A DNA stretch of 64,000 nucleotides, taken from the IMG/VR virus record IMGVR_UViG_3300045988_149975, one strand, 5' to 3'. Of the stretch, positions 7,352-27,720 are shown piece by piece. This stretch comes from a virus. Both the position numbers and the translations under genes were made by a program. The notes beneath the pieces are model-generated. The model had not been told where the DNA came from. It searched no databases and saw nothing but the letters and a program-made list of their open reading frames with translations. Position 1 is the first letter of the stretch. The number at the start of each line of letters is the position of its first letter.

Positions 7352-7523
7352 ATTTACTGCTCCCTTGAGCCACTTGGGTACTACGCCATAATTTCCATTT
7401 AGCCAAAGGTAGCAATAGATAACCTTATTATTCTATCATCTGTAACAAATTTTTTTTAAAGTAATAATTGCAGACATATATTTTTCAATATACGCTTTCT
7501 CAAATAAATATTGCTACCCTTGG

Positions 7524-7575
7524 ATAAGTGGCGGAGCGTAAACCGCTGCATTACCATTATGCTAACGCTCCGTTT
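7524..7575 (-). ncRNA. degenerate tRNA-like fragment (acceptor-like stem plus D-arm mimic only)
   Basis: GGAGCGT-TA-GCA(TAATGGTAA)TGC-A-GCGGTTT-ACGCTCC-GCCA. The D-loop matches the adjacent tRNA-Ser; anticodon and T arms are absent. On the plus strand it is followed by a T-run. Confidence 0.35.
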
Positions 7576-7581
7576 TTATGT

Positions 7582-7610
7582 ATTATAACATATTAACATA
7601 AAATTGTCAA
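7582..7610 (-). promoter_or_regulatory. sigma-A type promoter driving the tRNA/HNH array
   Basis: Minus strand TTGACAattttatgttaataTGTTATAAT. Confidence 0.55.
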
Positions 7611-7643
7611 GACTTTTTTAGAATTATTTAAAATTTTAACATC

Positions 7644-8423: not shown

Positions 8424-8530
8424 TCTAATTCCTCCTAATTAAAATTATATAGGGAAGCATAGAGAAGGAGGCTCTATGCTTAATTACTCTATCAAAGTTT
8501 GCAACCTTTAATAGAAACCTTTAAAATCTA

Positions 8531-8605
8531 TGGTCGTCCCAAAGGTACTCGAAACCTTGTTTTACAATTATAAGTTGTACGTTCTAACCACTGAACTATG
8601 GGACA
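8531..8605 (-). tRNA. tRNA-Ile(UAU) (AUA-reading) candidate
   Basis: Acceptor TGTCCCA/TGGGACG with U1.G72. D-arm GTTC-AGTGGTTA-GAAC. Anticodon stem TACAA/TTGTA with loop CTTATAA. T-arm AAGGT-TTCGAGT-ACCTT. ACCA 3' end. Confidence 0.55.
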
Positions 8606-8608
8606 ATA

Positions 8609-8693
8609 TGGTGCGCATGGAGGGACTCGAACCCTCACGGTTTTACCCAACGGATTTTAAGTCCGTTGTGTCTGCCAATTCCACCACAAGCGC
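8609..8693 (-). tRNA. tRNA-Leu(UAA), type II
   Basis: Acceptor GCGCTTG/CATGCGC with one mismatch. Anticodon stem ACGGA/TCCGT with loop CTTAAAA. Long variable arm. T-arm GAGGG-TTCGAGT-CCCTC. ACCA 3' end. Confidence 0.6.
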
Positions 8694-10630: not shown

Positions 10631-10644
10631 ATCATCGTATCACT

Positions 10645-10673
10645 ATTATACCACAAAAATCATTTTTTGTCAA
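10645..10673 (-). promoter_or_regulatory. sigma-A type promoter, minus arm of the divergent pair
   Basis: Minus strand TTGACAaaaaatgatttttgTGGTATAAT. Confidence 0.55.
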
Positions 10674-10730
10674 CAATTTTTGGAAAAATTTTTACTTTAG
10701 TAATTTAAAGTATTATGAATTTTAAAAATC

Positions 10731-10916
10731 CCTAAAGAAAAGAAAAAGAAAAGAACCAAAAGAAAAAGAAAAGAATATATATATATATATAATTATTATT
10801 ATAAATATTTTTATTTTTATTTTAGTTATAATATATATATATATATCTGACTATTAAAATTACGTTAGTAATTTTAATTTTCTTTTCTTTTTGGTTACTT
10901 TTTCTTTTCTTTATAA
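10731..10916. repeat. long inverted repeat of polypurine (GAAAA)n tracts flanking two (TA)7-8 runs, between divergent promoters
   Basis: Left arm AAAGAAAAGAAAAAGAAAAGAACCAAAAGAAAAAGAAAAGAA at 10735-10776. Right arm TTTTCTTTTCTTTTTGGTTACTTTTTCTTTTCTTT at 10879-10913. Centre ATATATATATATATAATTATTATTATAAATATTTTTATTTTTATTTTAGTTATAATATATATATATATAT. Confidence 0.7.
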
Positions 10917-10926
10917 AAAATTTTTG

Positions 10927-10955
10927 TTGACAAAATATGAAACTTGTGGTATAAT
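10927..10955 (+). promoter_or_regulatory. sigma-A type promoter, plus arm, driving the 10984-14904 module
   Basis: TTGACAaaatatgaaacttgTGGTATAAT. The downstream RBS GAGAGG precedes ATG 10984. Confidence 0.6.
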
Positions 10956-10983
10956 AAAGCCATACAGAAAGAGAGGTTTAGAT

Positions 10984-11187
10984 ATGTACAATTTTAATTA
11001 CACTGTTACCATTGAAATAAAGGGCTCTACAACATTTGATGTAGAGCAAGATTTTGCAGATCGTGTTAAAGAAAAAGACCCTAAAACTATTGAAACAATG
11101 AATAAATTAATTAAAAAGCGTATCGAAGAACAATTTGCAGATAATGTTGCAGAAGTTAAGGGGATAGAAATATTATGCAAGGATTAA
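10984..11187 (+). CDS. hypothetical small early protein
   Basis: ORF-track frame; probable start MYNFNY after the RBS. Confidence 0.45.
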   Translation: MYNFNYTVTIEIKGSTTFDVEQDFADRVKEKDPKTIETMNKLIKKRIEEQFADNVAEVKGIEILCKD

Positions 11188-11435
11188 CAAGAGATATTGA
11201 AATTTATAATGTTGATATTCGTAGAGTTCCAGTGATAGAAACTTTTTTAGAAGATAAACCTGTTTATTATAAAGCAAACACACCAATGCTTATAAAAGTT
11301 GGTAAAAACATAGAATATCTTAATGTTGGTGATTATATAGTTTGGGATAAAAACGGAAATTATAAAGTTTATTCAAAAAATGAATGGAATAAATTTTATG
11401 GCGCAAAATTAAAGGAGGCTGCAAAGAAATTATGA
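11175..11435 (+). CDS. hypothetical small protein
   Basis: Translationally coupled ORF. Confidence 0.4.
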   Translation: MQGLTRDIEIYNVDIRRVPVIETFLEDKPVYYKANTPMLIKVGKNIEYLNVGDYIVWDKNGNYKVYSKNEWNKFYGAKLKEAAKKL

Positions 11436-11692
11436 GATATTCCTGGAATAGAAAACGTAAACAATGGGGAAATGCTTATTGGTGCTATCCTTACAGTATT
11501 AAAATTCAAGCCCCTTTAATATTTGCCATTGTAAAACATATAGAGGGTACAACTATTGATGAATTTGATGATGGCACAATCGTTAGAATTATTAGACCCG
11601 AAAATGAGAATTTTTATAAGGATTTCTATACTATAAGAATTAGCGATGGTTTAAAACAGTATGTCTTAAAAAAGGATTTATTACCATGTTAA
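11432..11692 (+). CDS. hypothetical small protein
   Basis: Coupled ORF with ATGA overlap. Confidence 0.4.
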   Translation: MRYSWNRKRKQWGNAYWCYPYSIKIQAPLIFAIVKHIEGTTIDEFDDGTIVRIIRPENENFYKDFYTIRISDGLKQYVLKKDLLPC

Positions 11693-11952
11693 AACAAAAA
11701 CTCATTAAATCTTTTACAGAAGAAACGGGAATTAAAGTTTTAGACCCCTTTTATATAAAAGGCTATGAAACACCTTACAGAATTACAAAATCGGGAAATA
11801 TAGAACGCTTTATTAAATCTGTATGGACAGATAGTTCTTATGCAGTAATTGATTTAGTTGCATTTGTTGATAATGATATGATTAGCAAATGCACTGAAAA
11901 TCTTATAGAATATAAGCCATCAGAAATTACAAAACGGAGGAAAAAGAAATGA
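11686..11952 (+). CDS. hypothetical small protein
   Basis: Coupled ORF. Confidence 0.4.
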   Translation: MLKQKLIKSFTEETGIKVLDPFYIKGYETPYRITKSGNIERFIKSVWTDSSYAVIDLVAFVDNDMISKCTENLIEYKPSEITKRRKKK

Positions 11953-12082
11953 CATTGGATGCTGCTATTGAATATTGGACTAAAAAAGCTAAAGAAAATG
12001 AACAAAAATATGGTCAACTTGTAATGTGGTTGGAAGAATTAAAAGTTTTTCGTGAAGAGGATAAATTAAAAAAGGTGAAAAA

Positions 12083-12505
12083 ATGAAATATGAAGAACTC
12101 AATGAATACATTTTATACGGTATAATGTATAAAGGAAAATGGATTGCATATAGTTTAGATGATAATTTTATTTATATAAAGTTTGATAGTTTTATGGTAA
12201 AAATCCCTCATGATAAATTTTTTATAGATAAGAGATATTTACATCAGACAACTGGTTTAATACCGCTTTTTAAAAAAGAATATACAGAAAAATTAAAAAT
12301 TGGATGGGAACTTGAATATGATAGTAGTATTGGTTATCTAACAAAACTATCTAATGGTAGCCTTCTTTCTGCTACAATATTTAATTTTTTTGAGGATTAC
12401 ACAGGAGAGTTAAAATGCTATAAAGCGGATATTGGAAAAGTGGCAATCTATATAGATAATGAATTAATGGGTTTCATAGATACAGTGGGGGTTAAAAATG
12501 ATTAA
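12083..12505 (+). CDS. hypothetical protein
   Basis: 140-aa ORF with GGTG RBS. Confidence 0.4.
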   Translation: MKYEELNEYILYGIMYKGKWIAYSLDDNFIYIKFDSFMVKIPHDKFFIDKRYLHQTTGLIPLFKKEYTEKLKIGWELEYDSSIGYLTKLSNGSLLSATIFNFFEDYTGELKCYKADIGKVAIYIDNELMGFIDTVGVKND

Positions 12506-12950
12506 TTATACTAAAATTCAAAACAATTTTATTAAAGAATTAAATAAAGGCGTTAAGTTTTATTATCTTGAGGTTGGTTTTAACATTTATGCAAGTATTG
12601 ATTCTAAAATAATTTATTCTTTTCCTAAAGAAAAATTCTTTTTAGATTATGAGCGTTTTGGAATTAAGGAAGAAAATATTTTAAAAATTCTTACCTATGA
12701 TTATACTATACCTATTATAGATAGTAAAGAAGAAACAGATTTAAAAGAACTTACAGGACGATTATTTTTAACACCTGATAATAAAAAGATTTATTTGAAT
12801 CCTGAAAACATTAAAACTTTAGGAAAAGATTATGAATTATTTTGGGCATTAGGAACTCCGATTATAGTTGCGAAAAAAGATAATGTAATTTTATCTTTGT
12901 TTTCAATGATAAGAGTAGAAGATAGTGTAACAAGCACAAATTTTAGATAA
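12498..12950 (+). CDS. hypothetical protein
   Basis: 150-aa ORF. Confidence 0.4.
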   Translation: MINYTKIQNNFIKELNKGVKFYYLEVGFNIYASIDSKIIYSFPKEKFFLDYERFGIKEENILKILTYDYTIPIIDSKEETDLKELTGRLFLTPDNKKIYLNPENIKTLGKDYELFWALGTPIIVAKKDNVILSLFSMIRVEDSVTSTNFR

Positions 12951-12961
12951 GAGCGTTGTAA

Positions 12962-13267
12962 TTGATGGAGGTATATAAATATATGGATTTATTAGAAGAG
13001 GCTCTCTATAATGGTTTAGAGGAACATGAATGGGTAGATTTACTTGATTACTATGATTGGGATGAATTTGTAGATGAAATTTATGGTGACTTGCATAGAT
13101 GGGATATTGATGTAGTAAGTATTCGCCGTAAAGGAGATAAATATTATGCAATTTACTGGTCAAAAGGTTTAACGGAAAATCAAGAAAATGATTTTAGTTG
13201 TGCATATATTGAAGAAGTAACTCCTGTTAAAAGAACAGTAGAGGTAACGGAGTGGATGGAATGTTAA
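12962..13267 (+). CDS. hypothetical acidic protein
   Basis: 101-aa ORF rich in D/E/W/Y. Confidence 0.4.
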   Translation: MMEVYKYMDLLEEALYNGLEEHEWVDLLDYYDWDEFVDEIYGDLHRWDIDVVSIRRKGDKYYAIYWSKGLTENQENDFSCAYIEEVTPVKRTVEVTEWMEC

Positions 13268-13704
13268 GTAAAGAAAAGAAAGAAAAAGCCTTTAAAAAGT
13301 TAGAGAATTTTACAGGTGATGAACTTGAACTTTTAAGTAAGATGTACAATAAAGACTATGATATGTACCAATACTTCACTGTTATTTTTAAAATGCTACA
13401 TAAAAATGGCAATCATCTTGAGGATGAACATATTAAAGTTTTAAATGAGTATGTAGATAACTTTGGTAAAGTCTTTAATGATATATACTTACTGCCCGAT
13501 GAAACCTATTCTGACGAGGAATTAAAACGTATTGTACAAGCCTTTACCACAGGCTTTAAACCCTATATTTTGACAATCTCCCATATTGTGTACTGTCATA
13601 AATATGGGGATATATCATTTAAAGAGTTTGAGGATTCCTATGATATGACACTTGAACAGCTTGAAGATTATGTTATGCTAATTAAATTGGATGATGAATT
13701 ATGA
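13252..13704 (+). CDS. hypothetical protein
   Basis: 150-aa ORF. Confidence 0.4.
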   Translation: MDGMLSKEKKEKAFKKLENFTGDELELLSKMYNKDYDMYQYFTVIFKMLHKNGNHLEDEHIKVLNEYVDNFGKVFNDIYLLPDETYSDEELKRIVQAFTTGFKPYILTISHIVYCHKYGDISFKEFEDSYDMTLEQLEDYVMLIKLDDEL

Positions 13705-13951
13705 TTGATTTAATACGTTTTGGTATTCTGCAATCTTTAGATTATTGGACTGCAAAACACCTCTATAAATTATATTTAAAAAATAAAAAGGTAGAAGATG
13801 AATATGCAAATTGGGAACGGACGTTTAATTTCAAAGAATACTTTAAGGTATTGCAAAGAGTGTAATCACTTTAAAAATAATTACTGTTTTTTAAAATGTA
13901 AGAATGTGGGCGCAGATTGGTTATTTTGTAATAGATTTAAGGAGATAAAGA

Positions 13952-14239
13952 ATGAGTAATATCTTAATGACAGAATGTGAAAAATGTAAACGGAGAATTG
14001 TATTTCAAACTGATGATAAACTTAAATACTGTCCATACTGTGGTGAAGAAATCGAGGCTTATCGTAAGACTATGTTAAAAAATGGGGCAGAAAGATATAT
14101 TGATGAGATGAAGATAGCATTAGCTACAAAGGAATTAGAAAAAGAACTTATCATAGTACCTGAAGAAATTAGTGATTATGAGGATGGCTATATTAGAGGT
14201 ATTCAGTATGCACTTGAGGTATTGAGGGAAGAATTATGA
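13952..14239 (+). CDS. hypothetical Zn-ribbon protein
   Basis: CEKCKRR...CPYCGEE. Confidence 0.4.
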   Translation: MSNILMTECEKCKRRIVFQTDDKLKYCPYCGEEIEAYRKTMLKNGAERYIDEMKIALATKELEKELIIVPEEISDYEDGYIRGIQYALEVLREEL

Positions 14240-14339
14240 TTACATATATTATGATGGGACTTTCAATAGCGTGGGCAGTATTAATGTATGTTTCTGATAA
14301 TACTAATACAGTAATACGCAGCGCAGCATTGATGTTACT

Positions 14340-14534
14340 TTGTTGGTTTACAGCAGGTATTATGGCACTGGCGGAGGTATTATGATAATTTCAATTATTC
14401 TTACACTAATATGGTTTGTTCTTATGATGATAGAGGATAATAATTTAAACAGAAAAATAGAATATTTGGCACTTATGGTAACAAGTGCAATAAGTGTATG
14501 GGGTAATTATATATTAAATGCTTTAGAAAAATAG
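14340..14534 (+). CDS. small membrane protein
   Basis: Hydrophobic 64-aa ORF; an additional 50-aa hydrophobic ORF lies just upstream at about 14232-14390. Confidence 0.3.
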   Translation: MLVYSRYYGTGGGIMIISIILTLIWFVLMMIEDNNLNRKIEYLALMVTSAISVWGNYILNALEK

Positions 14535-14543
14535 GAGGTTATA

Positions 14544-14726
14544 ATGTTAGAGGTAACTTATAAAGATGGTAGAATAATTACAGTTGATGATTATGATTAT
14601 GTAGAATTGGAAGATGGTATGCTTATATTCTATAAAAATGAATATATAGTAATGGTAATTAACCTTGACTGCATAGAAACAGTAGTAGATATTGGTGATG
14701 AAAATGGGGAGGAAGAAAATGCTTAA
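14544..14726 (+). CDS. hypothetical protein, tandem paralogue A
   Basis: YKDGRIITVDDYDYVELEDGMLIFYKNEY parallels the next ORF. Confidence 0.4.
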   Translation: MLEVTYKDGRIITVDDYDYVELEDGMLIFYKNEYIVMVINLDCIETVVDIGDENGEEENA

Positions 14727-14904
14727 CATACATTATAAAAATGGCTTAACAGATACTATTACAAGAAATGAATATGATGATTATACTTATGACGGCAAAG
14801 TAATTATGATTTTTAAAAGGGGCAATATGATTGCCTTAATAAATGTAGATAGTATTAGTGGTATATATCTTAAAAGTGATATTGAAGGTAAGACTACCAA
14901 TTAA
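14692..14904 (+). CDS. hypothetical protein, tandem paralogue B
   Basis: YKNGLTDTITRNEYDDYTYDGKVIMIFKRGN. Confidence 0.4.
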   Translation: MVMKMGRKKMLNIHYKNGLTDTITRNEYDDYTYDGKVIMIFKRGNMIALINVDSISGIYLKSDIEGKTTN

Positions 14905-14920
14905 GGTAGTCTTTTTTATT
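14887..14920 (+). terminator. rho-independent terminator of the plus-strand module
   Basis: AAGACTACC-aattaa-GGTAGTCTT followed by TTTTTATT. Confidence 0.65.
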
Positions 14921-15149
14921 ACCAATTTTTAGTGGCGAATTTTTATCACGAAAAATTTTTACCGATTTTTGACATTGGCTTATTTTGTGGCACTTTATCT
15001 AATTAAAGTTTTGTTACCACTTTTAGAGAGAAAAAATTTTTTCAAAAAATATGAAGTCAGACTCCAACCTATTTATACGAACGCACGTTTGAAGGTACTT
15101 GTATAGTTAGACCAGGCTAACTCTATTACATAGTTAGCTTATGCTAACA

Positions 15150-15185
15150 GAAGATAAAAGTAAAGGCAGGCTTATTCAGCCTGCC
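15150..15185 (-). terminator. rho-independent terminator of the minus block (convergent with the previous terminator)
   Basis: Minus RNA GGCAGGCU-GAAUA-AGCCUGCC followed by UUUACUUUUAUCUU. Confidence 0.6.
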
Positions 15186-15188
15186 CCT

Positions 15189-15404
15189 TTACTTAACTAA
15201 AGGAAACTTCTCACCGCATATACTAATAGAGAATAACTCTTTTTTAACATCCTCCATTAGATATAATGCAATATCTTTTATACATTTATTACTATTTGCA
15301 ATAAATACAAGATGATACTGTTTATTAATAATTTTATAAACGCCGCTGTATATTACATAAAAGTTTTTTCCTGCGTACATCTCTCTAATAGGAAGCGTTC
15401 TCAA
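15189..15404 (-). CDS. hypothetical protein
   Basis: 71-aa ORF. Confidence 0.35.
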   Translation of the reverse strand: MRTLPIREMYAGKNFYVIYSGVYKIINKQYHLVFIANSNKCIKDIALYLMEDVKKELFSISICGEKFPLVK

Positions 15405-15410
15405 TAGTAG

Positions 15411-15812
15411 TCATCTCCTATGCTTAATTATTTTATCAGCTAACACTTCGCCGCGTTTTAACACATTTACCTTTTTAGTATAGGCTCCTATTAAGCCATT
15501 TATCTTTCTTGCTGTGGTTTTATCAACCGCTGTTTCTATTGGTTGAGAATAGTTATCTATTCGGGCATCATATTCAAATTTAGTTACTACTACATCAAGG
15601 TCAATATCATCTAAACTATAAATCTTATTAGGAATAGTTACTGATACAGTGTAAAAGCCCTGCGCCGCTTTAAAGGTATCAATTATATTTTTATAATAGT
15701 AAACAGTGTTATATAATGATACCCTGTTATTTACAGCTATTACTTCTCCGCCGTTCTCTTTTAACTGATAAAGGTTATTTATTTTTTGATATTGATAAAA
15801 AGTATATTTCAT
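15411..15812 (-). CDS. hypothetical protein
   Basis: 133-aa ORF. Confidence 0.4.
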   Translation of the reverse strand: MKYTFYQYQKINNLYQLKENGGEVIAVNNRVSLYNTVYYYKNIIDTFKAAQGFYTVSVTIPNKIYSLDDIDLDVVVTKFEYDARIDNYSQPIETAVDKTTARKINGLIGAYTKKVNVLKRGEVLADKIIKHRR

Positions 15813-15825
15813 AATAAAGCCCCCT

Positions 15826-16110
15826 TTATTCGCCGAATTTTATATCCCTATACTTAATAGGATTAGATTCTATTAAGTCTAAAAAACAATTAATAATAAT
15901 ATCATCTGTGATGTGCGCTTCATAAAATTCGCAAAAGTCAATATCATCTTTTAAATCATAATTATTAATAATAAATTCACTTGTCCTCCTGTAAACTTCT
16001 TCAATAATTTTATCATCATCGCCGCTTGTATAGGGCTGTTTTAAAAATACTATAATACAATCTTTTTTATTTTCGCCGTGGAATTTTTCGCCGTTGATAT
16101 ACAGAAACAT
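15826..16110 (-). CDS. hypothetical protein
   Basis: 94-aa ORF. Confidence 0.4.
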   Translation of the reverse strand: MFLYINGEKFHGENKKDCIIVFLKQPYTSGDDDKIIEEVYRRTSEFIINNYDLKDDIDFCEFYEAHITDDIIINCFLDLIESNPIKYRDIKFGE

Positions 16111-16496
16111 TATAATACCTCCTTTTTGTAGTCAGCATATTGTAATTGATAAAGTTTATCAATCAAAATATTTAAGTCTGTAGGCGTTCCTCTTGAGATT
16201 GCCTCCATTCCTTTGGTATCCCATTCATTGAAGTATTTTCTAATAGAATTATATTCTTTTTTAATTCCGAAGTTATAAAGAATAATTCCAATTTCATTTT
16301 CCGCTCCCTGCCAGTAGTCACTTATATTTTTTTCGCCTGCCGCTTTTCTCAAGTCAGCTATTAGTCTAACTCTTGCCGCTCTAAAATATTGCTTCAATAA
16401 TAATTCTTTATTATTTTTACTTAACATTTTTATATCCTCCTTTATATTCGGCAGGGCTTTTGCAGCCCTGCCTATTGTTTCACGTGAAACCGTCAA
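16110..16496 (-). CDS. hypothetical protein
   Basis: 128-aa ORF. Confidence 0.4.
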   Translation of the reverse strand: MTVSRETIGRAAKALPNIKEDIKMLSKNNKELLLKQYFRAARVRLIADLRKAAGEKNISDYWQGAENEIGIILYNFGIKKEYNSIRKYFNEWDTKGMEAISRGTPTDLNILIDKLYQLQYADYKKEVL

Positions 16497-17116
16497 ATAA
16501 ATTCTAATACACCTTTTGATGTTTCAGAAAAGTTATCATAACTTAAATCACGGGCAAAAGCTCCGTAGTCAAAATAGCGTTGGGCAATTTCGGGCAGGTC
16601 ATAACAATTTTCTATAATGTCATAGGCTCTATCCTCTAATGTTTCACCAGGGTAAAAGTAAAATTTATAACCTTCGCCGCCGTCAATCTCCTTGGCAATC
16701 TCTAAAAAGTCGCTTGAGTAAGCCTCCGCTAATGCTATTATTATATCTGTTTCACTTGCAAAGTTTACAAAAAGCTCATCCTCTATAATATTGCAGGCTT
16801 GGTTAAGTGATAAAACATCATCGTGTTCACTAATGCTAACTTCTCCATTTAATTCGTTGTAGTCAACATCAAATTCATAACTTGAAATAATGTATTCACT
16901 TTGGAAGCCCTTGCCGCCTAAAAATTCCTGCAAAGTGTTTTCTAACTCTTCGCTATCCATAGGCAGATTAAATTCCTTTTCAGTTTTGGCATTAAGATTT
17001 CTAATAAATACGTTCAACAATTTACACAACCCCTTTTTAACTATTGGCAATCTTCCAAGGCGTTGCCCTTTCCTCTTTACATTATAAATTATACAGCATT
17101 TATAAAATTCTGTCAA
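16493..17116 (-). CDS. hypothetical acidic protein
   Basis: 207-aa ORF. Confidence 0.4.
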   Translation of the reverse strand: MTEFYKCCIIYNVKRKGQRLGRLPIVKKGLCKLLNVFIRNLNAKTEKEFNLPMDSEELENTLQEFLGGKGFQSEYIISSYEFDVDYNELNGEVSISEHDDVLSLNQACNIIEDELFVNFASETDIIIALAEAYSSDFLEIAKEIDGGEGYKFYFYPGETLEDRAYDIIENCYDLPEIAQRYFDYGAFARDLSYDNFSETSKGVLEFI

Positions 17117-17130
17117 GCGAATTTTTAAAA

Positions 17131-17484
17131 TTAGTCTGTGATTGTTGCTTCTTTAACTAAACCATCAAAAATGCTGTTACTCTGTACAGTATTTATATTT
17201 TTTATCAAAACATTCAAAAGGATGTTTGCTATTCGCAAGGCTTCAACATCTCTTTTTTGTGTTTTTCTACCGTATTCGCTGATAAAATAGTGTTGTGTTT
17301 CCCAAGTGTTTACGCAAGTTCCTTTTTCTCCTACGGGTATACAGTATTCTACACTAATGCAATATTTTCTATAGAAATAGCTGTAAAAAACTGTAAACTG
17401 TAAAATGTTTGTTACTTCTCCCTCTGATGGAGTTAAAATAGCTTTAGGAAGTAATATTTTTTTCTGTAATAATGTTCTATCCAT
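17131..17484 (-). CDS. hypothetical protein
   Basis: 117-aa ORF. Confidence 0.35.
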   Translation of the reverse strand: MDRTLLQKKILLPKAILTPSEGEVTNILQFTVFYSYFYRKYCISVEYCIPVGEKGTCVNTWETQHYFISEYGRKTQKRDVEALRIANILLNVLIKNINTVQSNSIFDGLVKEATITD

Positions 17485-17695
17485 TTTATGCCTCCAAAAA
17501 CCATACTATTTTGTTATCTTTATAAATATCTAATGCAAACTTTGCATTATTTACAGCTTTTAACTTTTTAAAAAGTTATTTTAGTTTTACATTTTTTGCA
17601 AAATAAAACTTTATCATTTTTGCCATCAGATGTTAGGCTCCATAACATTATTTCATACATTATACTTCCCTTCCTTCCTGTTTCTTTATGCTCTT

Positions 17696-17724
17696 ATTAT
17701 AAGCCTTTTTTGAAGGCTTGTCAA
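17696..17724 (-). promoter_or_regulatory. sigma-A type promoter with palindromic spacer
   Basis: Minus strand TTGACAagccttcaaaaaaggctTATAAT. Confidence 0.5.
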
Positions 17725-18159
17725 GCATTTTTTTTGTAGCTTTTTTATATTCGGTTTTTGTTACCGTTCCTTGCTACATTTATATTATACCGCAGGTATA
17801 GTATATTGTAAACTTTAAAAACGGTTATTTTTTACCTTTTTACGGCTTTTATTCTCTTTTATTTTAAAATATCTTAATATATCTTACTTTTTCTCCTTTT
17901 TTCTTACTTTTTCGCCTACATCCTTTACAATGAATAAAATTATAATATATAAATATACCTTTAATATCGCCATATTTTAGTTTTGACGGCTTTTCTATAA
18001 AATAGGTATAATTATAAGCGTATGCCCTAAAAAACGGCTTACAGCTAAAATATGAAGGCGTATTTTTTGGCAAAAGTCAAAAAGTCAATAAAAAGGGTGA
18101 TGTAAAATGTATAAAATTATAATTATACCATAAAAACAGAAGTTTGTAAAGAGGGTAAA

Positions 18160-18210
18160 ATAAAAAAAAATAAAGGCAGGCTTTTTGATTGCCTGCCTTT
18201 TATCTTTATC
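18160..18210. terminator. bidirectional rho-independent terminator
   Basis: AGGCAGGC-tttttgatt-GCCTGCCT flanked by A9 upstream and TTTTATCTTT downstream. Confidence 0.6.
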
Positions 18211-18616
18211 AAGCCCTCCCTTTATGTAGCCATAAATTATAGATGTAGGAGTATTTTTTACCTAATATGTTAGCAAGTAATATAAATAAACGTTCTCTTA
18301 CAATGCTATCACATGCCCCGCTATAACTGTAAAATTCTACACCATTTTCAAGCGCTTGTAATAATTCGCCAAAAGTGATGGCTTTTAATTCCTGCCCGCC
18401 CTCTTTATCATCAAAGCAATCAATATAAAAGGCTTTAATTTGTTGTTGTAGCATAGTGTTTTTATAGGTATTTTTTAGCGTTTTAAGTAATTCTTTTTCA
18501 AAGTCTTTTTTAGCTTTTTTATAGACTACCTCCGCCGCCTCTCTCTCTACGCCGCAGGGGTAGGCATTTATTAATTCCGCCGCCGCTATCTGTTTTTTGA
18601 ATTTTTCACTTAACAT
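18209..18616 (-). CDS. hypothetical protein
   Basis: 135-aa ORF with RBS GGAGG. Confidence 0.4.
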   Translation of the reverse strand: MLSEKFKKQIAAAELINAYPCGVEREAAEVVYKKAKKDFEKELLKTLKNTYKNTMLQQQIKAFYIDCFDDKEGGQELKAITFGELLQALENGVEFYSYSGACDSIVRERLFILLANILGKKYSYIYNLWLHKGRA

Positions 18617-18713
18617 AAGTAATTGCGCCTCCTTTTAATATTGTAATTGTATTGTAACACAAGGGCAGGAAAAAAGCAAGCATTATTTTTTGTAAAAATT
18701 CGGCGCAAAAGTA

Positions 18714-18742
18714 TTGACAGTTATATAACAGTATAGTATACT
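18714..18742 (+). promoter_or_regulatory. sigma-A type promoter
   Basis: TTGACAgttatataacagtatagTATACT, then RBS GGAGGG and ATG 18775. Confidence 0.55.
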
Positions 18743-18774
18743 ATAATTACAATATTAAAGGAGGGCTTTTTATT

Positions 18775-18993
18775 ATGAGAAAAAATTATTTTTTAGAAGT
18801 ATCTTTAGAGGATAAAGAAGGGAAAATATTATGGAAAAATAGCAGGAAAAATGGAACGCTTGCGTGGGAGAAAATCTATTTACAGAGAGCGGAAAAAAAA
18901 CGTATAGAGAATAAAAAGGGAGTCTACCGCTATTCACTGTTAATAATTAAAATGTATATTGACGGTGTATGCTGTTATTCAAGTATTGACTAA
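18775..18993 (+). CDS. hypothetical small basic protein
   Basis: 72-aa ORF with strong RBS. Confidence 0.4.
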   Translation: MRKNYFLEVSLEDKEGKILWKNSRKNGTLAWEKIYLQRAEKKRIENKKGVYRYSLLIIKMYIDGVCCYSSID

Positions 18994-19040
18994 AGTATGG
19001 CAGGCTATAAAAGCCTGCTTTATTTTTTTATTTTTTGGTA

Positions 19041-19070
19041 TTGACAAGTTATATTATTATATGTTATAAT
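19041..19070 (+). promoter_or_regulatory. sigma-A type promoter firing into the ORF-free repeat region
   Basis: TTGACAagttatattattatatgtTATAAT with N18 spacer. Confidence 0.5.
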
Positions 19071-19136
19071 AAAAGATTGCACATCAATCATAAAGTTTAT
19101 TATTGCTAACTTATTATTTTAGTTAGCATAAGCTAA

Positions 19137-19470
19137 CCTGGGGTGTGCCTATTTTTGCGCTGCATAATTTTATATTAATAATAAATATCTAATGTGTGCC
19201 TGTTTTATTTAGGAATAATTACTAATAGTATTTTAATTAATTGATGTGTGCCTGTATAAATAGGAATAGTTACTAATAACAAAAATTATTATGTAAGGTG
19301 TGCCTATTAAATAGGAATTATTCTCAATAAGAAATAAATTTTAATCTTAAATAGTAATTAATACTATTAATTTTTTATACTAATGAGAATTATTCCTATT
19401 TAAAGGCGATGTGTGCCTAATATAAATTCTTAAATGATAATTTTAAAAATTTTAAGGCGAATTTTTCATT
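19137..19470. repeat. iteron-like tandem array: GTGTGCCT-N6-8-TAGGAATARTTACTAATA units at about 53-bp period
   Basis: GTGTGCCT at 19141, 19194, 19247, 19299 and 19411. TAGGAATA(A/G)TTACTAATA follows in units 2-4, with an inverted copy TAATGAGAATTATTCCTA at about 19381. Confidence 0.7.
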
Positions 19471-19740
19471 TTTAAAGGAATGATGAAAATTTCGGCGGAG
19501 AATTTTAAGCACGTTTTTATTAAAGGGGGCTATATAATATTTAAAGCAGCCTTATAATAAATAGTTCTATACTTTAATTCTACAATTTCTGCCGCCGCCT
19601 TTTCCACTCTTTAAAAGTGATATAATAAAACAACTGTGGAAATTAAGGCAGCGGTGAAAATTAAGATAGCGATGTAAAATGTGTAAAAATCGGCGGCAGC
19701 GTAGTTATACCTTTTCTATATAAAAGAGTGGGTATAACAG

Positions 19741-20065
19741 TATATAAGATGAGGGGTAGTAGAGAGTATATAAGAGAGTGGTGAAAAATGGGGGGGTAAG
19801 TATATAAGAGAATAGTATATAAGAGAAAATAGGTATAAAACGGCGGGGCAAGATTAGTAATACTATTAGAAGAGAATAAGAGAGAGAGTATATAAGAAGG
19901 TATATAATAGGTATATAAGAGAGGGTATATATAAGAGTATATAAGAGTGGTGTAAAATATACGGGGCAGTATATAAGAGAGTGTATATAAAAGAGTGTAT
20001 AAAAGGCGGCAGAAGTATATGAGTATATAAGAGAGTATAAAGCCTTGGACAAGAGAGTATATAAA
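19741..20065. repeat. array of about 15 TATATAAGAG(A/T) direct repeats interspersed with GGCGGCAG GC-islands
   Basis: Repeated (G)TATATAAGAG. GC motifs CGGCGGCAG, CGGCGGGGCAAG, CGGGGCAG and GGCGGCAG. ORF-track ORFs 19661..20077 and 19705..20052 are low-complexity artefacts. Confidence 0.75.
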
Positions 20066-20214
20066 ATGAAAATCCATTATATAAACAAGTGTTCTATATT
20101 GTTTGCTTTACCCATACTCTCATGTGTGCCATCAAATCACATTAAATGCGCACTCAACGTGTACCGCTAAATCACATTAGATTTATTTCGCAAAAAATTT
20201 CTCTTTTAAAGGGC

Positions 20215-20300
20215 GTTTTGAGATAACCATAACTTTTTATATACAAGTTTGATAACCATAACTTTTTATATAAAAGTTTGATAACCAAGAAAAATTATAT
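20215..20300. repeat. three direct repeats TTTGATAACCA(T/A)AACTTTTTATATA(C/A)AAG
   Basis: Tandem 33-bp units. AAATCACATTA occurs twice at 20120-20185. CTGCGGCCGCC, CTGCGCCCGCCGC and CTGCCGC, each followed by ATTTTT, lie at 20440-20630. Confidence 0.65.
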
Positions 20301-20639
20301 ACAAGTTGTTACCCATAGTAATTATCTAAAGTAGTTACCTCTGTAAACTATTTTACTAATCTTGCAACTGAAATTAGCACAAGAATATTCTCCTATATAC
20401 TCTCTTATTTTCCTTCTTATATATTATTACTATTATAATACATACACCTTCTGCGGCCGCCATTTTTACCATCCTATTCCTGCGCCCGCCGCATTTTTCA
20501 CAGTATCTTTTTGATACTTACTATATATTATAAAGTAACTATCTTTATGTTATATACTATATCATTTTTATATTATTACCTTTTATATATTTATATACTT
20601 TTTAATAATTTCCCCTTTTTCTGCCGCATTTTTTTTCCA

Positions 20640-20672
20640 AAATAAAGGGGCTTTTTCAGCCCCTCATTTTAC
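20640..20672. terminator. bidirectional terminator hairpin
   Basis: GGGGCT-ttttc-AGCCCC flanked by A/T runs. Confidence 0.55.
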
Positions 20673-20914: not shown

Positions 20915-21326
20915 TACCTCCCTTTCACATCTCTATTATACTATATATACATTAATGTGTCAACCCCTTAAAAAGAAAAAGCAGGGGAATTTCCCTGCTA
21001 TAAGAAAATTATACAAAACATTGAAATGAGAATTACTGATAATATAAACATATCGTTGTCTACATGATAAATCGTACAATAAAGAATTGCAATCATCCAT
21101 AAAGCTATAACCATTTTGTATATAAATATATTTGTAATTGTAAAAGTTATTATTTCAAACATTTATTTTACCTCTATATTATCATCAATAAGAATTATTG
21201 AACCAATAGTTACTAAAGCTGAAATAATTATTACAAGCCCTAACATTATATCCTTTTGTGCATACATTAAATAAGCAGCAAAAAGAAATATCCAATTTAT
21301 TATACTTATTGCTTTTAGTGTATTCA

Positions 21327-21758
21327 TTAATTTTTAACCTCACTCCATTTACCACCTACAAGAATAAACTCTTTATAGTAATCAGGATTATACCAGTTGG
21401 GCATATAATGTTTTTTCTTAAAGAATTTTCTAATTGTATCTTTTATTAAATCTTCTAATTCTAAAGTATCTTCAACTGTTAAATCACTTAAATAACTATC
21501 CGCTGCTTCCCCCGCTTCATCATAAGCACTTTCTTGCATATCCTCAATAATATTATCTACATTAAAGTATGGAATATCAGCAAATTCACCTTTCATTATA
21601 TATACAGTATCTCCATCTTTAGGTTTAAGAACATCTTTAGCTTCCTCTAATGCATCTCTTAATTTAGTAAAAGGTGAACTCCAATAATAATCAGTCAATC
21701 TTTCTGCCCATACATAATATTTCATTATCTTTTCCCCCAATCTAATTTTTGCCCGCAA
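21327..21758 (-). CDS. hypothetical protein
   Basis: 143-aa ORF. Confidence 0.4.
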   Translation of the reverse strand: MRAKIRLGEKIMKYYVWAERLTDYYWSSPFTKLRDALEEAKDVLKPKDGDTVYIMKGEFADIPYFNVDNIIEDMQESAYDEAGEAADSYLSDLTVEDTLELEDLIKDTIRKFFKKKHYMPNWYNPDYYKEFILVGGKWSEVKN

Positions 21759-21916
21759 TTTTCACAATAGTTAGGTAATCCAAGAAAATCATCAACAATC
21801 ATTTTATTACAAAATGGGCAATGATAAATGTTGTTATATTCTTCATTCTTTTCAGGCTTTTTAGCAATAGCCTTTTCTAACGCTGTAACTCTTTCAGTTG
21901 GTGAAAGTTTTTTCAT
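21725..21916 (-). CDS. Zn-ribbon protein
   Basis: CPFCNK...CENCGQK. Confidence 0.35.
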   Translation of the reverse strand: MKKLSPTERVTALEKAIAKKPEKNEEYNNIYHCPFCNKMIVDDFLGLPNYCENCGQKLDWGKR

Positions 21917-21919
21917 CTT

Positions 21920-22339
21920 TTATTCCTCCATTTCAATTAACCCTTCTACATATTGCATAGCTTCGTCAAGTGTTAAATATCTCTTGATAATATCATAACC
22001 CGTACTTTGAACATTGTCAACATTTTCATCCTCATAATTCCTTGCGCCTACAAAATAAAGCTGTTTATGGTTTTCGTATTCCCCAGGGTCAATATGAACT
22101 ATGTATTCACCAAGAGTATAAACATCTCTATCAATCTTTTGCCAAGGGTAAAGAATTGATTTATCAACAGTTCTAAAATCTGTAATAGGTAAAGGAATAT
22201 TTTCCATCCTTGCGCCGCAAATGGGGCAGAAAGGTGTCATATAAATTAATTTTGGTGGAACAAAATGGCAATTACTACATTCACAAGTCCTATTAGTATT
22301 TTGTTCAAGTTTTTTATGGGCTTTCCAATATGCTCTCAT
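21920..22339 (-). CDS. hypothetical Cys-rich protein
   Basis: CECSNCH...CPICGARM. Confidence 0.4.
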   Translation of the reverse strand: MRAYWKAHKKLEQNTNRTCECSNCHFVPPKLIYMTPFCPICGARMENIPLPITDFRTVDKSILYPWQKIDRDVYTLGEYIVHIDPGEYENHKQLYFVGARNYEDENVDNVQSTGYDIIKRYLTLDEAMQYVEGLIEMEE

Positions 22340-22614
22340 TCTACATACCTCTCAAAATAAATAAGATTTACTTGTAATTCTACTCCGTCTACTGCGGCTT
22401 TCATTGGAATACAATTCTTTACCTTAACATACAGTAGTGGAGTGTAAGCGGGGTCATAAAAGCCTAAAATCTCTTTAGGTGCAATCATTGTGTCACTTAC
22501 AAAGAAGTTGTCACCTTTATCAATAATACGTTTCTGTTCAAACTCATTTAAAACAATATCCATTTTAAAACCACTCCTTATAAAAGTTAGTTTTTTCAAA
22601 AACTTCTTCCCCAT
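22336..22614 (-). CDS. hypothetical protein
   Basis: 92-aa coupled ORF. Confidence 0.35.
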   Translation of the reverse strand: MGKKFLKKLTFIRSGFKMDIVLNEFEQKRIIDKGDNFFVSDTMIAPKEILGFYDPAYTPLLYVKVKNCIPMKAAVDGVELQVNLIYFERYVE

Positions 22615-22858
22615 TATAGCCTGCTCTATTTAAAATTTTAACAAAATAATATCTATAAAGCCATTTTATGGCATCAGGTTCTATAAGTTTTGCAATAACT
22701 AAAGCACTTAATGCCCCATAAAGTCTATCTAAAAGTATTAAGTAATTTTCTCCTTCTTTTAGTCTATTTAATTCATTCTCCATAAACTGTTTTAAAACAG
22801 TTACACCATCAATCATAAAGTTCTTTTGCCTCCCTTTCAATTTTACGCAATAAATCAA
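22565..22858 (-). CDS. hypothetical protein
   Basis: 97-aa ORF. Confidence 0.35.
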   Translation of the reverse strand: MIYCVKLKGRQKNFMIDGVTVLKQFMENELNRLKEGENYLILLDRLYGALSALVIAKLIEPDAIKWLYRYYFVKILNRAGYNGEEVFEKTNFYKEWF

Positions 22859-23036
22859 TGTCTACTTGCATAAGTGGGGCTACATTATAGTACGCTTCTA
22901 CTTTACCCAATGCAATATGATATTCTGCTATTCTTATATCAAAATCAAAATCCTCAAAAGTCATATTACTGGTAAGTTTGTCCAACCTATACATTTCCTC
23001 AACTGCATTTTTAAATAATCTGATGAACTGTTCCAT
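22809..23036 (-). CDS. hypothetical protein
   Basis: 75-aa ORF downstream of promoter 23063-23091. Confidence 0.35.
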   Translation of the reverse strand: MEQFIRLFKNAVEEMYRLDKLTSNMTFEDFDFDIRIAEYHIALGKVEAYYNVAPLMQVDIDLLRKIEREAKELYD

Positions 23037-23087
23037 ATTGATTACCTCCTTTTGTTGTACTCATTATAGCATTTATAGTAATCTTTG

Positions 23088-23131
23088 TCAACCCTTATTT
23101 TAAAAATAAATAAAAAAATAGGACTACCACT
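23088..23131 (-). terminator. rho-independent terminator
   Basis: Minus RNA GGGCUAUC-AAGU-GGUAGUCC followed by UAUUUUUUUAUUUAUUUUU. Confidence 0.55.
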
Positions 23132-25614: not shown

Positions 25615-27720
25615 TCAAGCCTTAAAATTGTAAATTGGCTTAATAATCTGTTTAATTTTAACAGTATCTTTAACAGCGTCTATAATCTCTTGTGCAGGTT
25701 TATATGCCATAGGTGCTTCATCAATAGTGGAATTATTAACTGATGTAGTATAAATACCATCCATAGTAGCCATATAATCTTTTAAATCAATTTTCTCTTT
25801 AGCTTCGCTACGGCTCATAATTCTACCTGCGCCATGAGGGGCAGAGAAGTTCCAATCAGGATTACCCTTACCCTCACCAATTATGCAGCCATCCCTCATA
25901 TTAAGAGGTATTACAACACTTTCTCCTGCTCTTGCAGAAATTGCGCCTTTACGAATAGTTCCATTAGCATAATAATTATGAATAGATTCTACTGTTTCAA
26001 CAGCTAACACATTAAAATGGTTTAAAATACGCTCTGCAATAGAAAGGCGGTTAAGGGAAGCAAATTCACAGGCAAGGTACATATCTTGTTTATACTCCTC
26101 TAAATATTCACCTGTAAGATGTTCTAAACCTTTAGGCAGTTTATTATCCTCTTTAAACTGAAGTAACCATTCTTGCCGTTTTTGTGGCTCAATAGTTTGA
26201 ATATGAAACTTAATCTGTTCCTTTAAATCACCTTGTATTTTTTCGGCAAGGGATTGATAATATTTTGCTACTTGATTACCAAGATTTCGTGAACCACTAT
26301 GTACTAATAACCATTGATTGCCCTCATTATCAATGTCTACTTCAATAAAATGATTGCCGCCTCCAAGCGAACCAAGAGAAAGCCTTAATCTATCAGTATC
26401 ATGAAAATGATCACAACAACGAAAAAGTTTTAAAGGGAAGTATTCCTGAATTTTCTCATTTACATCAAAACCTGAAGGAATAAACTCATTTATAAACATA
26501 TCAAGTTTTTCCAAATTTTTAATAGGTTTATTAAGTTTAACTGCAAGAATACCACAATTACCTGTAATTGATATTTTACTATTCCTTCTAATAACAAAAT
26601 AACCTGTATCAGTAGTAAAACAATACTTTAAACCATCCACAGATTTAACTGTTTCAATCTTATGTTCAGGAAATCTTACAATATCGTTTAAGGTTTCATA
26701 AACATTATATGTAGGATTCCATCCGTTATCATAAGTAATTACACTTATTCCTGCCCTAACACCACTGGCAGCAAAAGCATACTGAATTGCGTCTGCATTA
26801 CATTTAAGGGAGGTTGAAAATCTTGTTTTATTATTGCGAACAGTTCCATCCCAATACTTAATTTCGTCTATAACTACTTTTAATTCATTACTATTACATT
26901 GATAAAGAAAACTTAAATCTTTAACATACTCATTTTCAGAACCTCTAAAACGAATATTTGAAGTGCCGTCTTTCCAAACACTAATCCTGTAGTCAATACC
27001 TGCCTGCTTTAATAATTTGATAGCACGTTTAATTTTACGTTCTTTTCTAAAGTGAAGTTCAATCCACTGACTGCCATCTACATTATTATTTATATGCCCA
27101 TCAGCACTAACCATAATCATTAAACGAAGTTTAATATCTTCAATGCCTAAACCTTTAGAGTTTACATTAAAAGTGGTTTTAATACCTCCACTGATGCCCT
27201 TTTTAAGTGAGTTATGATGTTCTACAAAATCTTTTGCGGTATAATCACGAAGTTTATATCCTTTACCTTTAATGCCAATCCAAGCCAATATTTTATGTTC
27301 AGCACTAACACATTGGTCTAATCCCCCATCAGTGTTAAGGTAATAAAAATCCTCACAGGGCTTTTTAATATATAATAATGGGTGAGAAAACCTTGCACTA
27401 TCTGTATTTTTATCATAAATTAAAATCTGTTCTCCATCATATTCTGAAATCTTTTTCCAGCCGTTAGGGGTAAGAATTTCAGTATCTTTATCAAGGCAAC
27501 CAATATCTACCCCTATAACATTAGGGATTAAATATCTTACATTTGATGCAGTAAATCCCACCACACAGCCTTTTCCTGCATGATAGTCAGGCATAACGCA
27601 AATTTGCGCCCCTGAAAAAGATTTTAAGTTACAAAAATCTAAAATCTGTTCATAAGCAGTATCATCATATCTGTCAGAATAGATTATAGCGTCATTATAT
27701 TTACCTTTTACCTCAATCAT
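25615..27720 (-). CDS. rtcB: RtcB-type RNA 3'-phosphate ligase, interrupted by an intein
   Basis: Exteins QICVMPDYHAGKGCVVGF and VDIG|CGILAV match the RtcB DIGCG motif; C-terminal GGGNHF and PHGAGR motifs. The extein totals about 387 aa. Confidence 0.8.
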   Translation of the reverse strand: MIEVKGKYNDAIIYSDRYDDTAYEQILDFCNLKSFSGAQICVMPDYHAGKGCVVGFTASNVRYLIPNVIGVDIGCLDKDTEILTPNGWKKISEYDGEQILIYDKNTDSARFSHPLLYIKKPCEDFYYLNTDGGLDQCVSAEHKILAWIGIKGKGYKLRDYTAKDFVEHHNSLKKGISGGIKTTFNVNSKGLGIEDIKLRLMIMVSADGHINNNVDGSQWIELHFRKERKIKRAIKLLKQAGIDYRISVWKDGTSNIRFRGSENEYVKDLSFLYQCNSNELKVVIDEIKYWDGTVRNNKTRFSTSLKCNADAIQYAFAASGVRAGISVITYDNGWNPTYNVYETLNDIVRFPEHKIETVKSVDGLKYCFTTDTGYFVIRRNSKISITGNCGILAVKLNKPIKNLEKLDMFINEFIPSGFDVNEKIQEYFPLKLFRCCDHFHDTDRLRLSLGSLGGGNHFIEVDIDNEGNQWLLVHSGSRNLGNQVAKYYQSLAEKIQGDLKEQIKFHIQTIEPQKRQEWLLQFKEDNKLPKGLEHLTGEYLEEYKQDMYLACEFASLNRLSIAERILNHFNVLAVETVESIHNYYANGTIRKGAISARAGESVVIPLNMRDGCIIGEGKGNPDWNFSAPHGAGRIMSRSEAKEKIDLKDYMATMDGIYTTSVNNSTIDEAPMAYKPAQEIIDAVKDTVKIKQIIKPIYNFKA
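26557..27498 (-). mobile_element. intein with LAGLIDADG homing-endonuclease domain inside rtcB (about 314 aa)
   Basis: Starts CLDKDTEILTPNGW after VDIG. LAGLIDADG-like LRLMIMVSADGHI and VVIDEIKYWDGT. Ends ...ISITGN followed by Cys +1. Confidence 0.7.

Follow-up and report, generated by a model that had tools for sequence, protein, structure and literature searches.

The largest stretch free of open reading frames (ORFs) in a 64,000-nucleotide sequence of the virus record IMGVR_UViG_3300045988_149975, the whole of which is referred to hereafter as the window, lies at 18994-20668, and the repeat families found there are almost confined to it. The sequence comes from an uncultured phage of ∼30% GC present in human-associated metagenomes, where it is carried on contigs of 93-95 kb. 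Comparison of related lineages indicates that the region is composite, with a separate, accessory and dispensable Module A (19041-19430) lying beside Module B (19440-20668). The evidence given below supports the view that Module B is not junk but functional non-coding DNA that acts in cis, most likely as a site on which DNA-binding proteins would assemble. It does not encode a protein and belongs to no described RNA family. Among the functions that it could serve, we tentatively place first that of a genome seam, meaning a concatemer-junction, genome-end or packaging region, and second that of a replication origin. The two need not be exclusive; they may coexist, because replication can be primed from ends and the phage has a gene for a RecA-like recombinase. 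Sequence alone does not decide between an origin and a packaging region or terminus. The original prediction for this region had been 'replication origin or packaging region'. It was partly right: the region is a conserved cis-element, and both of its readings are among the leading ones here, but the arguments that it gave specifically for an origin (a DnaA box, a strand switch and GC skew) fail.

The existence of a ∼1.65-kb ORF-free region packed with repeats, as originally described, was confirmed and is not a matter of chance, each of the repeat families listed being essentially confined to it. The two largest stretches of the window without an ORF of at least 60 amino acids are 18994-19660 and 20078-20668, with a single repeat-generated ORF between them. 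The ORFs called here, at 19661-20077 and 19705-20052 (minus strand), had been dismissed as artefacts, and this was upheld. They read as L/Y/T/I/S repeats and lack a Shine-Dalgarno sequence, their start, length and frame shift between variants, and the gene calls of L049, L050 and L056, all close strains, lack them. A real protein was rejected on these grounds. In a scan of the whole window, no Rfam family passed its gathering threshold in the region, and only transfer RNAs (tRNAs) elsewhere in the window did so; with E-values allowed up to 10 there was still no match, the best (E = 0.47) being far below threshold. Folding z-scores of -3.3 to -3.6 are owed to inverted repeats, and the centre of the region gave z = 0.1.

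Recounting the repeats changed the description of several families. The family put at ∼15 copies is real but has ∼13. Its unit, the T box GTATATAAGAG, has 13 of its 14 window matches inside the region when up to one mismatch is allowed, and all eight exact window copies of TATATAAGAG lie in the region, on the plus strand (0.5 expected). Given that 13 of the 14 matches sit here, the T box is no general signal in front of genes, and a role as phage promoter was rejected. The four copies of GTG(G/T)AAAAT reported previously were not found: this literal form occurs once in the region (19950), and a looser GTG(G/T/A)AAA seven times. The true unit is a longer motif, M, in which GTGnAAAAAT is followed by a G/C island. 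A strict M pattern has seven distinct copies in the region as against six in the remaining 62.7 kb, and local shuffles gave 0.08. The GC islands mostly trail an A-run and so belong to the longer M box instead of being free-standing. They had been listed as a family of ∼10 copies; exact matches to GGCGGCAG or CTGCCGCC in the region account for three of four in the window, and for eight of 20 at up to one mismatch. The NotI site mentioned with them is indeed the only one in the window (20453-20460). Likewise, AAATCACATTA occurs twice, as stated (20134 and 20169), and nowhere else in the window. Three tandem repeats at the centre of the region were also found, with a period of 29 bp, not 33 bp. 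In Module A, the five copies of GTGTGCCT stand as described and are the only ones in the window (0.74 expected), although their period is 51-52 bp and not 53 bp. The sequence TAGGAATARTTACTAATA, said to follow three or four of them, has two exact copies (19210 and 19261), together with a variant at 19312 and, at 19388, a copy in inverted orientation.

Pattern scans and look-ups of exact proteins identified ∼25 contigs that represent 89-99% identical strains. Two further lineages, L149/L150 (one neighbouring protein 72% identical) and L255 (one neighbouring protein 62% identical), are the informative relatives and were found by protein look-ups only. Among cultured phages, Bacillus phage BCD7 (93.8 kb) is the nearest; its family A polymerase (PolA) is 32% identical and its replication module is syntenic. 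A phage database contained no DNA match. Pattern scans of IMG/VR for distant relatives returned chance matches or the same two contigs only, a search of a genome collection for distant relatives returned none, and a metagenome scan added five contigs, every one from the window's own lineage. Loci with a 52%-identical RtcB also came up and lie outside the comparison made here.

Module B, the core of the region, which includes a left border (Block L), a centre (Block C) and a right border (Block R), is kept in the three lineages even though the small coding genes that flank it are only 72-81% identical in nucleotide sequence. Block R is 86-87% identical to its counterparts in L150 and L255, which exceeds these small genes and equals RtcB (86-88%), the best-conserved gene of the neighbourhood; Blocks C and L are 77-84% identical across lineages. 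Three families of short asymmetric boxes are present in Module B, namely T, M and central iterons of 22-29 bp. The arrangement of the boxes is strictly polar in four variants. There are 9-12 T boxes on the plus strand to the left of Block C and 0-2 on the minus strand to its right, while M boxes are on the plus strand in the left arm and on the minus strand in the right arm. The boxes of both arms thus converge on the conserved centre: those of the left arm, which is poor in C, read rightward, and those of the right arm, which is poor in G, read leftward. The distance from the M-box cluster to Block C is constant at 555-585 bp despite reshuffling of the repeats within it. Conservation of the repeats in related phages had been named as a test of the prediction, and core, box polarity and arm length are all maintained. 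We consider it very unlikely that the region is neutral repeat debris, that is, slippage-prone, low-complexity intergenic DNA without function. The T-box array and the central iterons do vary in copy number and order even among 90%-identical strains, as debris would, but the conservation of Blocks L, C and R equals or exceeds that of coding DNA, the four variants keep both polarity and arm length, and BCD7 has an analogous element.

The features of the region are collected in Table 1. Within the M-box cluster of Module B, the direct M-like boxes (19636-19653, 19654-19671 and 19681-19701) form an 18-bp tandem, and the pair of inverted and direct boxes is kept in L150 and L255. The left arm is 71% purine (A149 C14 G95 T86 over 19702-20045, GC skew ∼+0.74), and the number and order of its boxes differ between strains. 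The two 24-bp units of Block C share the form GTGTRCC...AATCACATTA. The central iterons differ between strains in number, spacing and variant, with at least five copies of 17 nucleotides in L001, about four copies in L050, and two in both L150 and L255. Block R also contains the palindrome AGTATC-N5-GATACT (20502-20518) and a conserved stretch of ∼14% GC (20521-20620); the conserved 100 bp at 20509-20608, ∼200 bp from the iterons, are the second least stable in the 64 kb. No conserved sigma-70 promoter was found inside Module B: L150 has none, and the BCD7 element has one, moderate and leftward, in its AT-rich centre. In neither L150 nor BCD7 does a conserved sigma-70 promoter read into the element, so that an RNA product is not what these elements have in common.

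Table 1. Features of the ORF-free region (window coordinates).
Feature	Position	Strand	Details
Rho-independent terminator of the 72-amino-acid early gene (18775-18993)	18999..19036	+	Stem 18999-19019 and T run; left border in the window's lineage
Module A promoter, TTGACA-18-TATAAT with TG extension, 12/12	19041..19070	+	Consensus sigma-70; reads rightward into ORF-free DNA
GCTAAC / GTTAGC / GCTAAC triple	19105..19137	+	Sequence and fold
Module A array, X boxes GTGTGCCT and Y boxes TAGGAATnnTTnnnAATA (TAGGAAT units)	19139..19430	+	X at 19143, 19194, 19246, 19298 and 19411; period 51-52 bp
Block L, conserved left border, TTTTAAGGCG..TTTTAAAGG..TGAAAATTTCGGCGGAGAATTTTAAG..AAAGGGGGCTATATAAT	19445..19560		77-78% identity to L150 and L255
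M-box cluster	19589..19701		Inverted M (19589-19607) facing three or four direct M-like boxes
Left arm	19702..20070	+	12 T boxes GTATATAAGAG, all on the plus strand, interspersed with M boxes at 19781, 19832, 19950 and 19995
Block C, conserved centre	20085..20235		24-bp units GTGTGCCATCAAATCACATTA (20124) and GTGTACCGCTAAATCACATTA (20159), 35 bp apart, then ..TTTCTCTTTTAAAGGGCGTTTTGAGATAACC
Central iterons, three tandem 29-bp units GATAACCAnnnnnTTTTTATATAnAAGTTT	20222..20312	+	Repeat analysis; units at 20222-20308
Variable part of the right arm, G-poor	20313..20424	-	Inverted T boxes CTCCTATATACTCTCTTAT at 20390 and TTCTTATATATTATTAC at 20414
Block R, 216-bp conserved non-coding block	20425..20640	-	M boxes (minus strand) at 20451-20470 (holds the NotI site), 20482-20501 and 20621-20638
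Terminator ending the leftward replication/nucleotide-metabolism block (64000 to 20669)	20645..20665	-	Right border of the region

The position of Module B is one of the features that point to a genome seam. It is placed between a set of small early genes, whose sigma-70 promoters score 12/12, and the terminator (with equivalents in L150 and beside the BCD7 element) of the long leftward gene block, which runs from at least 64000, the edge of the window, to 20669. L149/L150 and BCD7 share this layout. In them the flanking genes all run in one direction, and because of this the element can be described as a break in a one-directional gene map. The 12-13 T boxes, spaced 10-16 bp apart, form a short one-directional repeat array of the type seen at such seams. 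Terminase or end-binding proteins would recognize Module B and make the genome ends, and the end next to the early host-takeover module would be the first to enter the cell. That proteins bind to the site, that the DNA is cut and in what order it enters the cell is inferred.

Close parallels in layout are provided by the repeat-rich junction regions of phages T7 and T5, the latter described below. At the concatemer junction of T7, ∼1.2 kb of ORF-free DNA lie between the last gene and the first early gene, around a 160-bp terminal repeat, with at least 12 CCTAAAG boxes in one direction at a 13-bp period. Strong host promoters come next, and the first gene is 0.3, an anti-restriction gene. Module B and the T7 junction differ in several respects. 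Module B has no sequence similarity to the T7 junction. The T7 boxes on both sides of the repeat are all direct and in one orientation, whereas the arms of Module B are inverted, and T7 lacks central 22-29-bp iterons. In T7 the early promoters read away from the end, which is true of only some genes in the window. Finally, the T7 ends are experimentally known and those at Module B are proposed from sequence. A further connection is provided by the large terminase subunit (TerL) of BCD7, which is closest, at 34% identity, to that of Streptomyces phage BRock; the BRock record has a 221-bp direct terminal repeat inside ORF-free DNA. The terminase gene of the window's phage lies outside the window.

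Several observations weigh against a genome seam. No physical end was found: contig ends scatter over 19095-20485, never at the same nucleotide and often in tandem repeats, several contigs cross the region uninterrupted, and a 95,180-bp contig of the same phage breaks ∼200 bp to the left of the start of the window. The link between terminase type and end type is a 34% identity to one phage. No terminase gene is near the element, and that of BCD7 is ∼15 kb away from its element, which itself lies ∼5 kb off the strictly syntenic position. Furthermore, the combination of tandem 22-29-bp iterons with a neighbouring AT-rich stretch that is conserved and easily melted is what a textbook origin looks like. 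Contigs without visible ends would be expected in any case, because a genome with terminal repeats is closed into a circle when it is assembled.

The contig breaks in the region are probably owed to repeats and strain variation. Reading physical ends from contig ends was consequently abandoned as an approach, the ends being scattered, at different nucleotides and within tandem repeats. At one contig end, 28 bases were looked for at the contig's other end and did not recur there. Four contigs that approach from the left terminate at 19095-19217. Three others (L051, L055 and L248) end within 60 bp of each other at 19345-19408, on or immediately beyond the right arm of the inverted repeat in Module A; two of these are of near-genome length (93,112 and 93,909 bp, the latter at 79x), and one is of 3.7 kb. 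The arms of the inverted repeat share too few exact bases to account for a de Bruijn-graph break at this position. Chi-like end protection was considered and rejected: AGCGG-type and other known Chi sequences were not clustered by eye, and conservation of the A/T part of the M box would be needless for Chi.

That Module B is a replication origin is possible, and nearly as probable as a seam. A phage initiator would bind the central iterons and the flanking M and T boxes, the AT-rich stretch of Block R (20509-20608) would melt, and the DnaC-like loader and DnaB-like helicase would then be loaded, possibly aided by transcription from 19041. Much of the anatomy is as expected. The tandem 29-bp iterons have related units in every variant and a copy number that varies by strain; the easily melted stretch is conserved and has M boxes on both sides; and the sites on either side of the centre are mutually inverted. 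In the window's lineage a perfect promoter reads in, and the left arm would yield a G-rich, C-poor RNA. Such RNA could favour the formation of an RNA-DNA hybrid (R-loop) that serves as a primer. The phage has a helicase, a loader and PolA, but no recognizable initiator or iterons beside them; a search for iterons near the helicase and loader genes, as an alternative origin, was negative.

Iteron-type origins such as lambda ori, P1 oriR and those of iteron plasmids lie in or beside the initiator gene, often with DnaA boxes. They resemble Module B in having tandem iterons of ∼20-30 bp by an easily melted AT-rich stretch, with additional inverted sites. They differ in that the initiator gene contains or adjoins the origin and that DnaA boxes are often present, neither of which is a feature of Module B, and in lacking 12-13 extra 11-bp boxes in a 350-bp purine-rich arm. 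The neighbours of Module B are orphan proteins of 54-143 amino acids, lineage-variable and without an initiator domain. The DnaA-box-like sequence TGTGGAAAT noted previously is present, but the consensus TTWTNCACA is not enriched (11 in the window as against 11.9 expected, two of them in the region), and an origin based on DnaA boxes was rejected for this reason. The thirteen 11-bp boxes, with their irregular spacing of 10-16 bp, are atypical of known origin iterons and resemble the arrays at T7 ends.

The wider context also argues against an origin. A strand switch, cited in its favour, is real in the window, but it is convergent (a 72-amino-acid gene on the plus strand facing an 81-amino-acid gene on the minus strand) and is absent from the L149/L150 lineage. 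Genes flanking an origin usually diverge, the opposite of this arrangement. Since genes here converge or run through, a fork moving rightward would run head-on into transcription over more than 43 kb. The check proposed for an inflection in GC skew was uninformative: there was only a local blip made by the repeats, with the same negative skew on both flanks. Across the whole BCD7 genome the skew is monotonic, without an inflection, and in these phages skew tracks gene direction. The promoter that reads in is missing in two lineages, and the window contains a second origin-like element at 10644-10956.

This second element is a nested palindrome of ∼310 bp between perfect divergent sigma-70 promoters (minus strand, 10673-10645; plus strand, 10927-10955). 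It has polypurine/polypyrimidine arms (10733-10775 and 10879-10913), two (TA)8 runs and an AT-rich core, and is the least stable duplex in the 64 kb. A match was also found in L149 by blastn. The palindrome forms the left edge of the early module as the ORF-free region forms the right edge, and is a candidate for an alternative origin or a cruciform.

The module bracketed by these two edges (10.65-19.0 kb) spans 8.4 kb and consists of small genes on both strands, with several perfect TTGACA-17/18-TATAAT promoters and an ArdA-like anti-restriction gene at 16493-17116, ∼2.3 kb leftward of Module B. The module has the appearance of an early one, for host takeover. Its setting recalls phage T5, in which Repeat Region 3 is a 1.2-kb untranslated block of multiple repeats in the left terminal repeat, together with the pre-early genes, and is better conserved than many ORFs of the terminal repeat (Davison, bioRxiv 10.1101/866236). 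Like the present region, the T5 element, with its injection stop signal, is made up of nested direct repeats, inverted repeats and palindromes (bioRxiv 10.1101/866236). It differs in having paired DnaA boxes at fixed positions within a 10-kb terminal repeat, DnaA boxes in the window being neither enriched nor paired, and there is no relatedness in sequence or between the phages.

It is conceivable, although improbable, that the resemblance goes further, with the 8.4-kb module terminally repeated and Module B, as the counterpart of Repeat Region 3, marking the internal boundary of the repeat, at which DNA entry would halt until early proteins are made. The layout is that of T5, in that early genes with strong host promoters are mostly read away from a multi-repeat block of ∼1.2 kb; the early module is bracketed by two unusual non-coding elements (10644-10956 and 18994-20668); and it holds the anti-restriction-like gene. 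Yet the defining feature of the T5 element, its paired DnaA boxes, is missing here, and nothing points to a long repeat or to doubled coverage. The phage is a relative of BCD7, which has a tail sheath protein in its annotation, and not of T5. Promoters that are just as perfect are found on the right-hand side of the region too (20963 and 23091).

The element of BCD7 is an ORF-free stretch of ∼1 kb, from 87,892 to about 88,950 in its record, bounded by the terminator of the upstream unit. A patch rich in G (GTGTGC/GTGCGTG) is followed by an AT-rich centre and then by a C-rich arm in which GTATATAAG boxes cluster. The element thus shares with Module B both the order of G-rich arm, AT-rich centre and C-rich arm and the bounding terminator. 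It cannot be aligned with the window, and its boxes are of mixed orientation and weakly enriched (12 as against 7.1 expected in 17.8 kb, with seven within 250 bp). We regard it as apparently analogous to Module B, in a distant relative.

The conserved convergent polarity of Module B is a property that, to our knowledge, is not familiar from T7, T5 or lambda-type sites. A more speculative extension of the seam reading, which we consider unlikely, is that the two converging one-directional box arrays orient a DNA-handling machine towards a central processing site, and that this is an undescribed kind of cis-element conserved from gut Firmicutes-type phages to BCD7. Such a machine would be steered as FtsK is guided by FtsK orienting polar sequences (KOPS) to dif on bacterial chromosomes. 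The machine could be a terminase or packaging motor, an end-protecting protein or a helicase loader, and the site could serve both end formation and recombination-primed replication.

Module A differs from Module B in its distribution. It is absent from L149/L150 together with the neighbouring genes of 17.7-19.0 kb, and its absence from this lineage is the reason for calling it accessory. In L255 the X and Y boxes are kept, with different spacers and one unit fewer, and in strain L065 the array is partly deleted. The promoter at 19041 is kept in close strains, absent in L149/L150 and unrecognizable in L255. The original prediction had counted the promoter and the GTGTGCCT array into one element with the rest of the region; this does not hold for a separate module that one lineage lacks and another carries without a consensus promoter. 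Y boxes follow X boxes at 19210, 19261 and 19312, and one inverted Y is found at 19381-19398. The last Y and the inverted Y form an inverted repeat with 35-nucleotide arms (19307-19341 and 19369-19403). In the leader of the 19041 transcript, the GCTAAC...GTTAGC...GCTAAC triple would allow two mutually exclusive hairpins, a layout resembling that of an attenuator.

These features raise the question of whether the region is a non-coding RNA locus, from which the 19041 promoter would produce a long structured or repeat RNA of Module A, possibly extending into the purine-rich left arm of Module B, that acts as a decoy or regulator. An antitoxin-like RNA, or an anti-defence RNA resembling repeats of CRISPR (clustered regularly interspaced short palindromic repeats), would fit the accessory early-gene setting. 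A perfect extended promoter with no ORF behind it, a fold that exceeds that of shuffled sequence (z = -3.6), a 51-52-nucleotide unit of conserved boxes and variable spacers, and an accessory distribution like that of anti-defence genes are all in keeping with this. Nevertheless, we rate it as quite improbable. Rfam has no match even at E = 10, L255 keeps the boxes but not the promoter, a strain substitution disrupts the proposed small hairpin, and Module B, which has no conserved promoter, is left unexplained. In addition, the units are only 74-82% alike and the spacers are constant across strains, unlike those of CRISPR. The repeats of type III antitoxins are near-identical.

More specific assignments of Module A were rejected. 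CRISPR arrays have near-identical repeats and strain-specific spacers of ∼30 nucleotides, with cas genes or a leader. Module A instead consists of ∼34 conserved nucleotides and a variable part of 17-18 nucleotides, with units of the above divergence and spacers identical between strains; no cas domains were found among the proteins scanned. In arrays for the antitoxin RNA of a type III toxin-antitoxin system, a promoter is followed by near-identical tandem repeats of ∼35-45 nucleotides, a terminator and a toxin gene. In Module A the repeats diverge, no ORF follows them and the promoter is absent in L255, in addition to the lack of an Rfam match. A scan of 185,579 species genomes of bacteria and archaea revealed no similar array of two units, and an IMG/VR search with one unit yielded neither a two-unit locus nor any locus related to the window, which argues against an RNA locus. 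Mimicry of a host repeat was discarded, no such array being found in the genome or viral collections.

Outside the region, the minus strand holds nearly all genes between 64000 and 20669. This leftward block encodes a DnaC-like loader, a DnaB-like helicase, PolA and RecA, as well as a ribonucleotide reductase and a C5-methylase (each with an intein), an RNA ligase, and RtcB with a LAGLIDADG insert. Self-splicing elements interrupt three genes (25615-27720, 34428-36443 and 46305-49184), namely RtcB with its LAGLIDADG domain, the C5 cytosine methylase with its intein and the ribonucleotide reductase with its intein; in the related strains L049 and L051-L053, RtcB is uninterrupted and has 387 amino acids. 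Promoters of the 12/12 TTGACA-17/18-TATAAT type are unusually dense across 10645-19070 and 20935-23091 (10673, 10927, 17116, 17724, 19041, 20963 and 23091). Each heads one or a few orphan small genes with matching terminators, including a bidirectional one at 15162-15188. Near the right border of Module B, L149 (10393-12358) and L255 (12197-14162) carry an extra gene pair, with one or two small genes between, which comprises a 210-amino-acid fragment of an N6-methylase and a 447-amino-acid protein of many helix-turn-helix repeats; the window has small orphan genes instead.

The genes at 42975-44840, 45025-45603 and 50417-51058 are homologues of BCD7 genes annotated as queuine tRNA-ribosyltransferase (DpdA-like), QueC and QueE. 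Some guanines in the phage DNA are probably replaced by a 7-deazaguanine derivative. A cluster of eight or nine tRNA genes, including an isoleucine tRNA with the anticodon TAT, and an RNA-repair-type set of ATP-dependent ligase, RNA ligase, RtcB and a VWA/DUF7788 protein are listed together at 5786-8693, 1737-2843, 3893-5452 and 41891-42964.

Module B is the best-defined non-coding landmark shared by this uncultured gut phage lineage of ∼95 kb and BCD7, its only cultured relative. If it is a plain origin or packaging (pac) region, the result is a useful but ordinary annotation; if its polarity steers a motor or loader, it would represent a new design principle. The identity of whatever binds the T, M and iteron boxes would fix the true start of the genome and the genes that enter the cell first, would explain the frequent assembly breaks at Module B and would aid the engineering of these phages.

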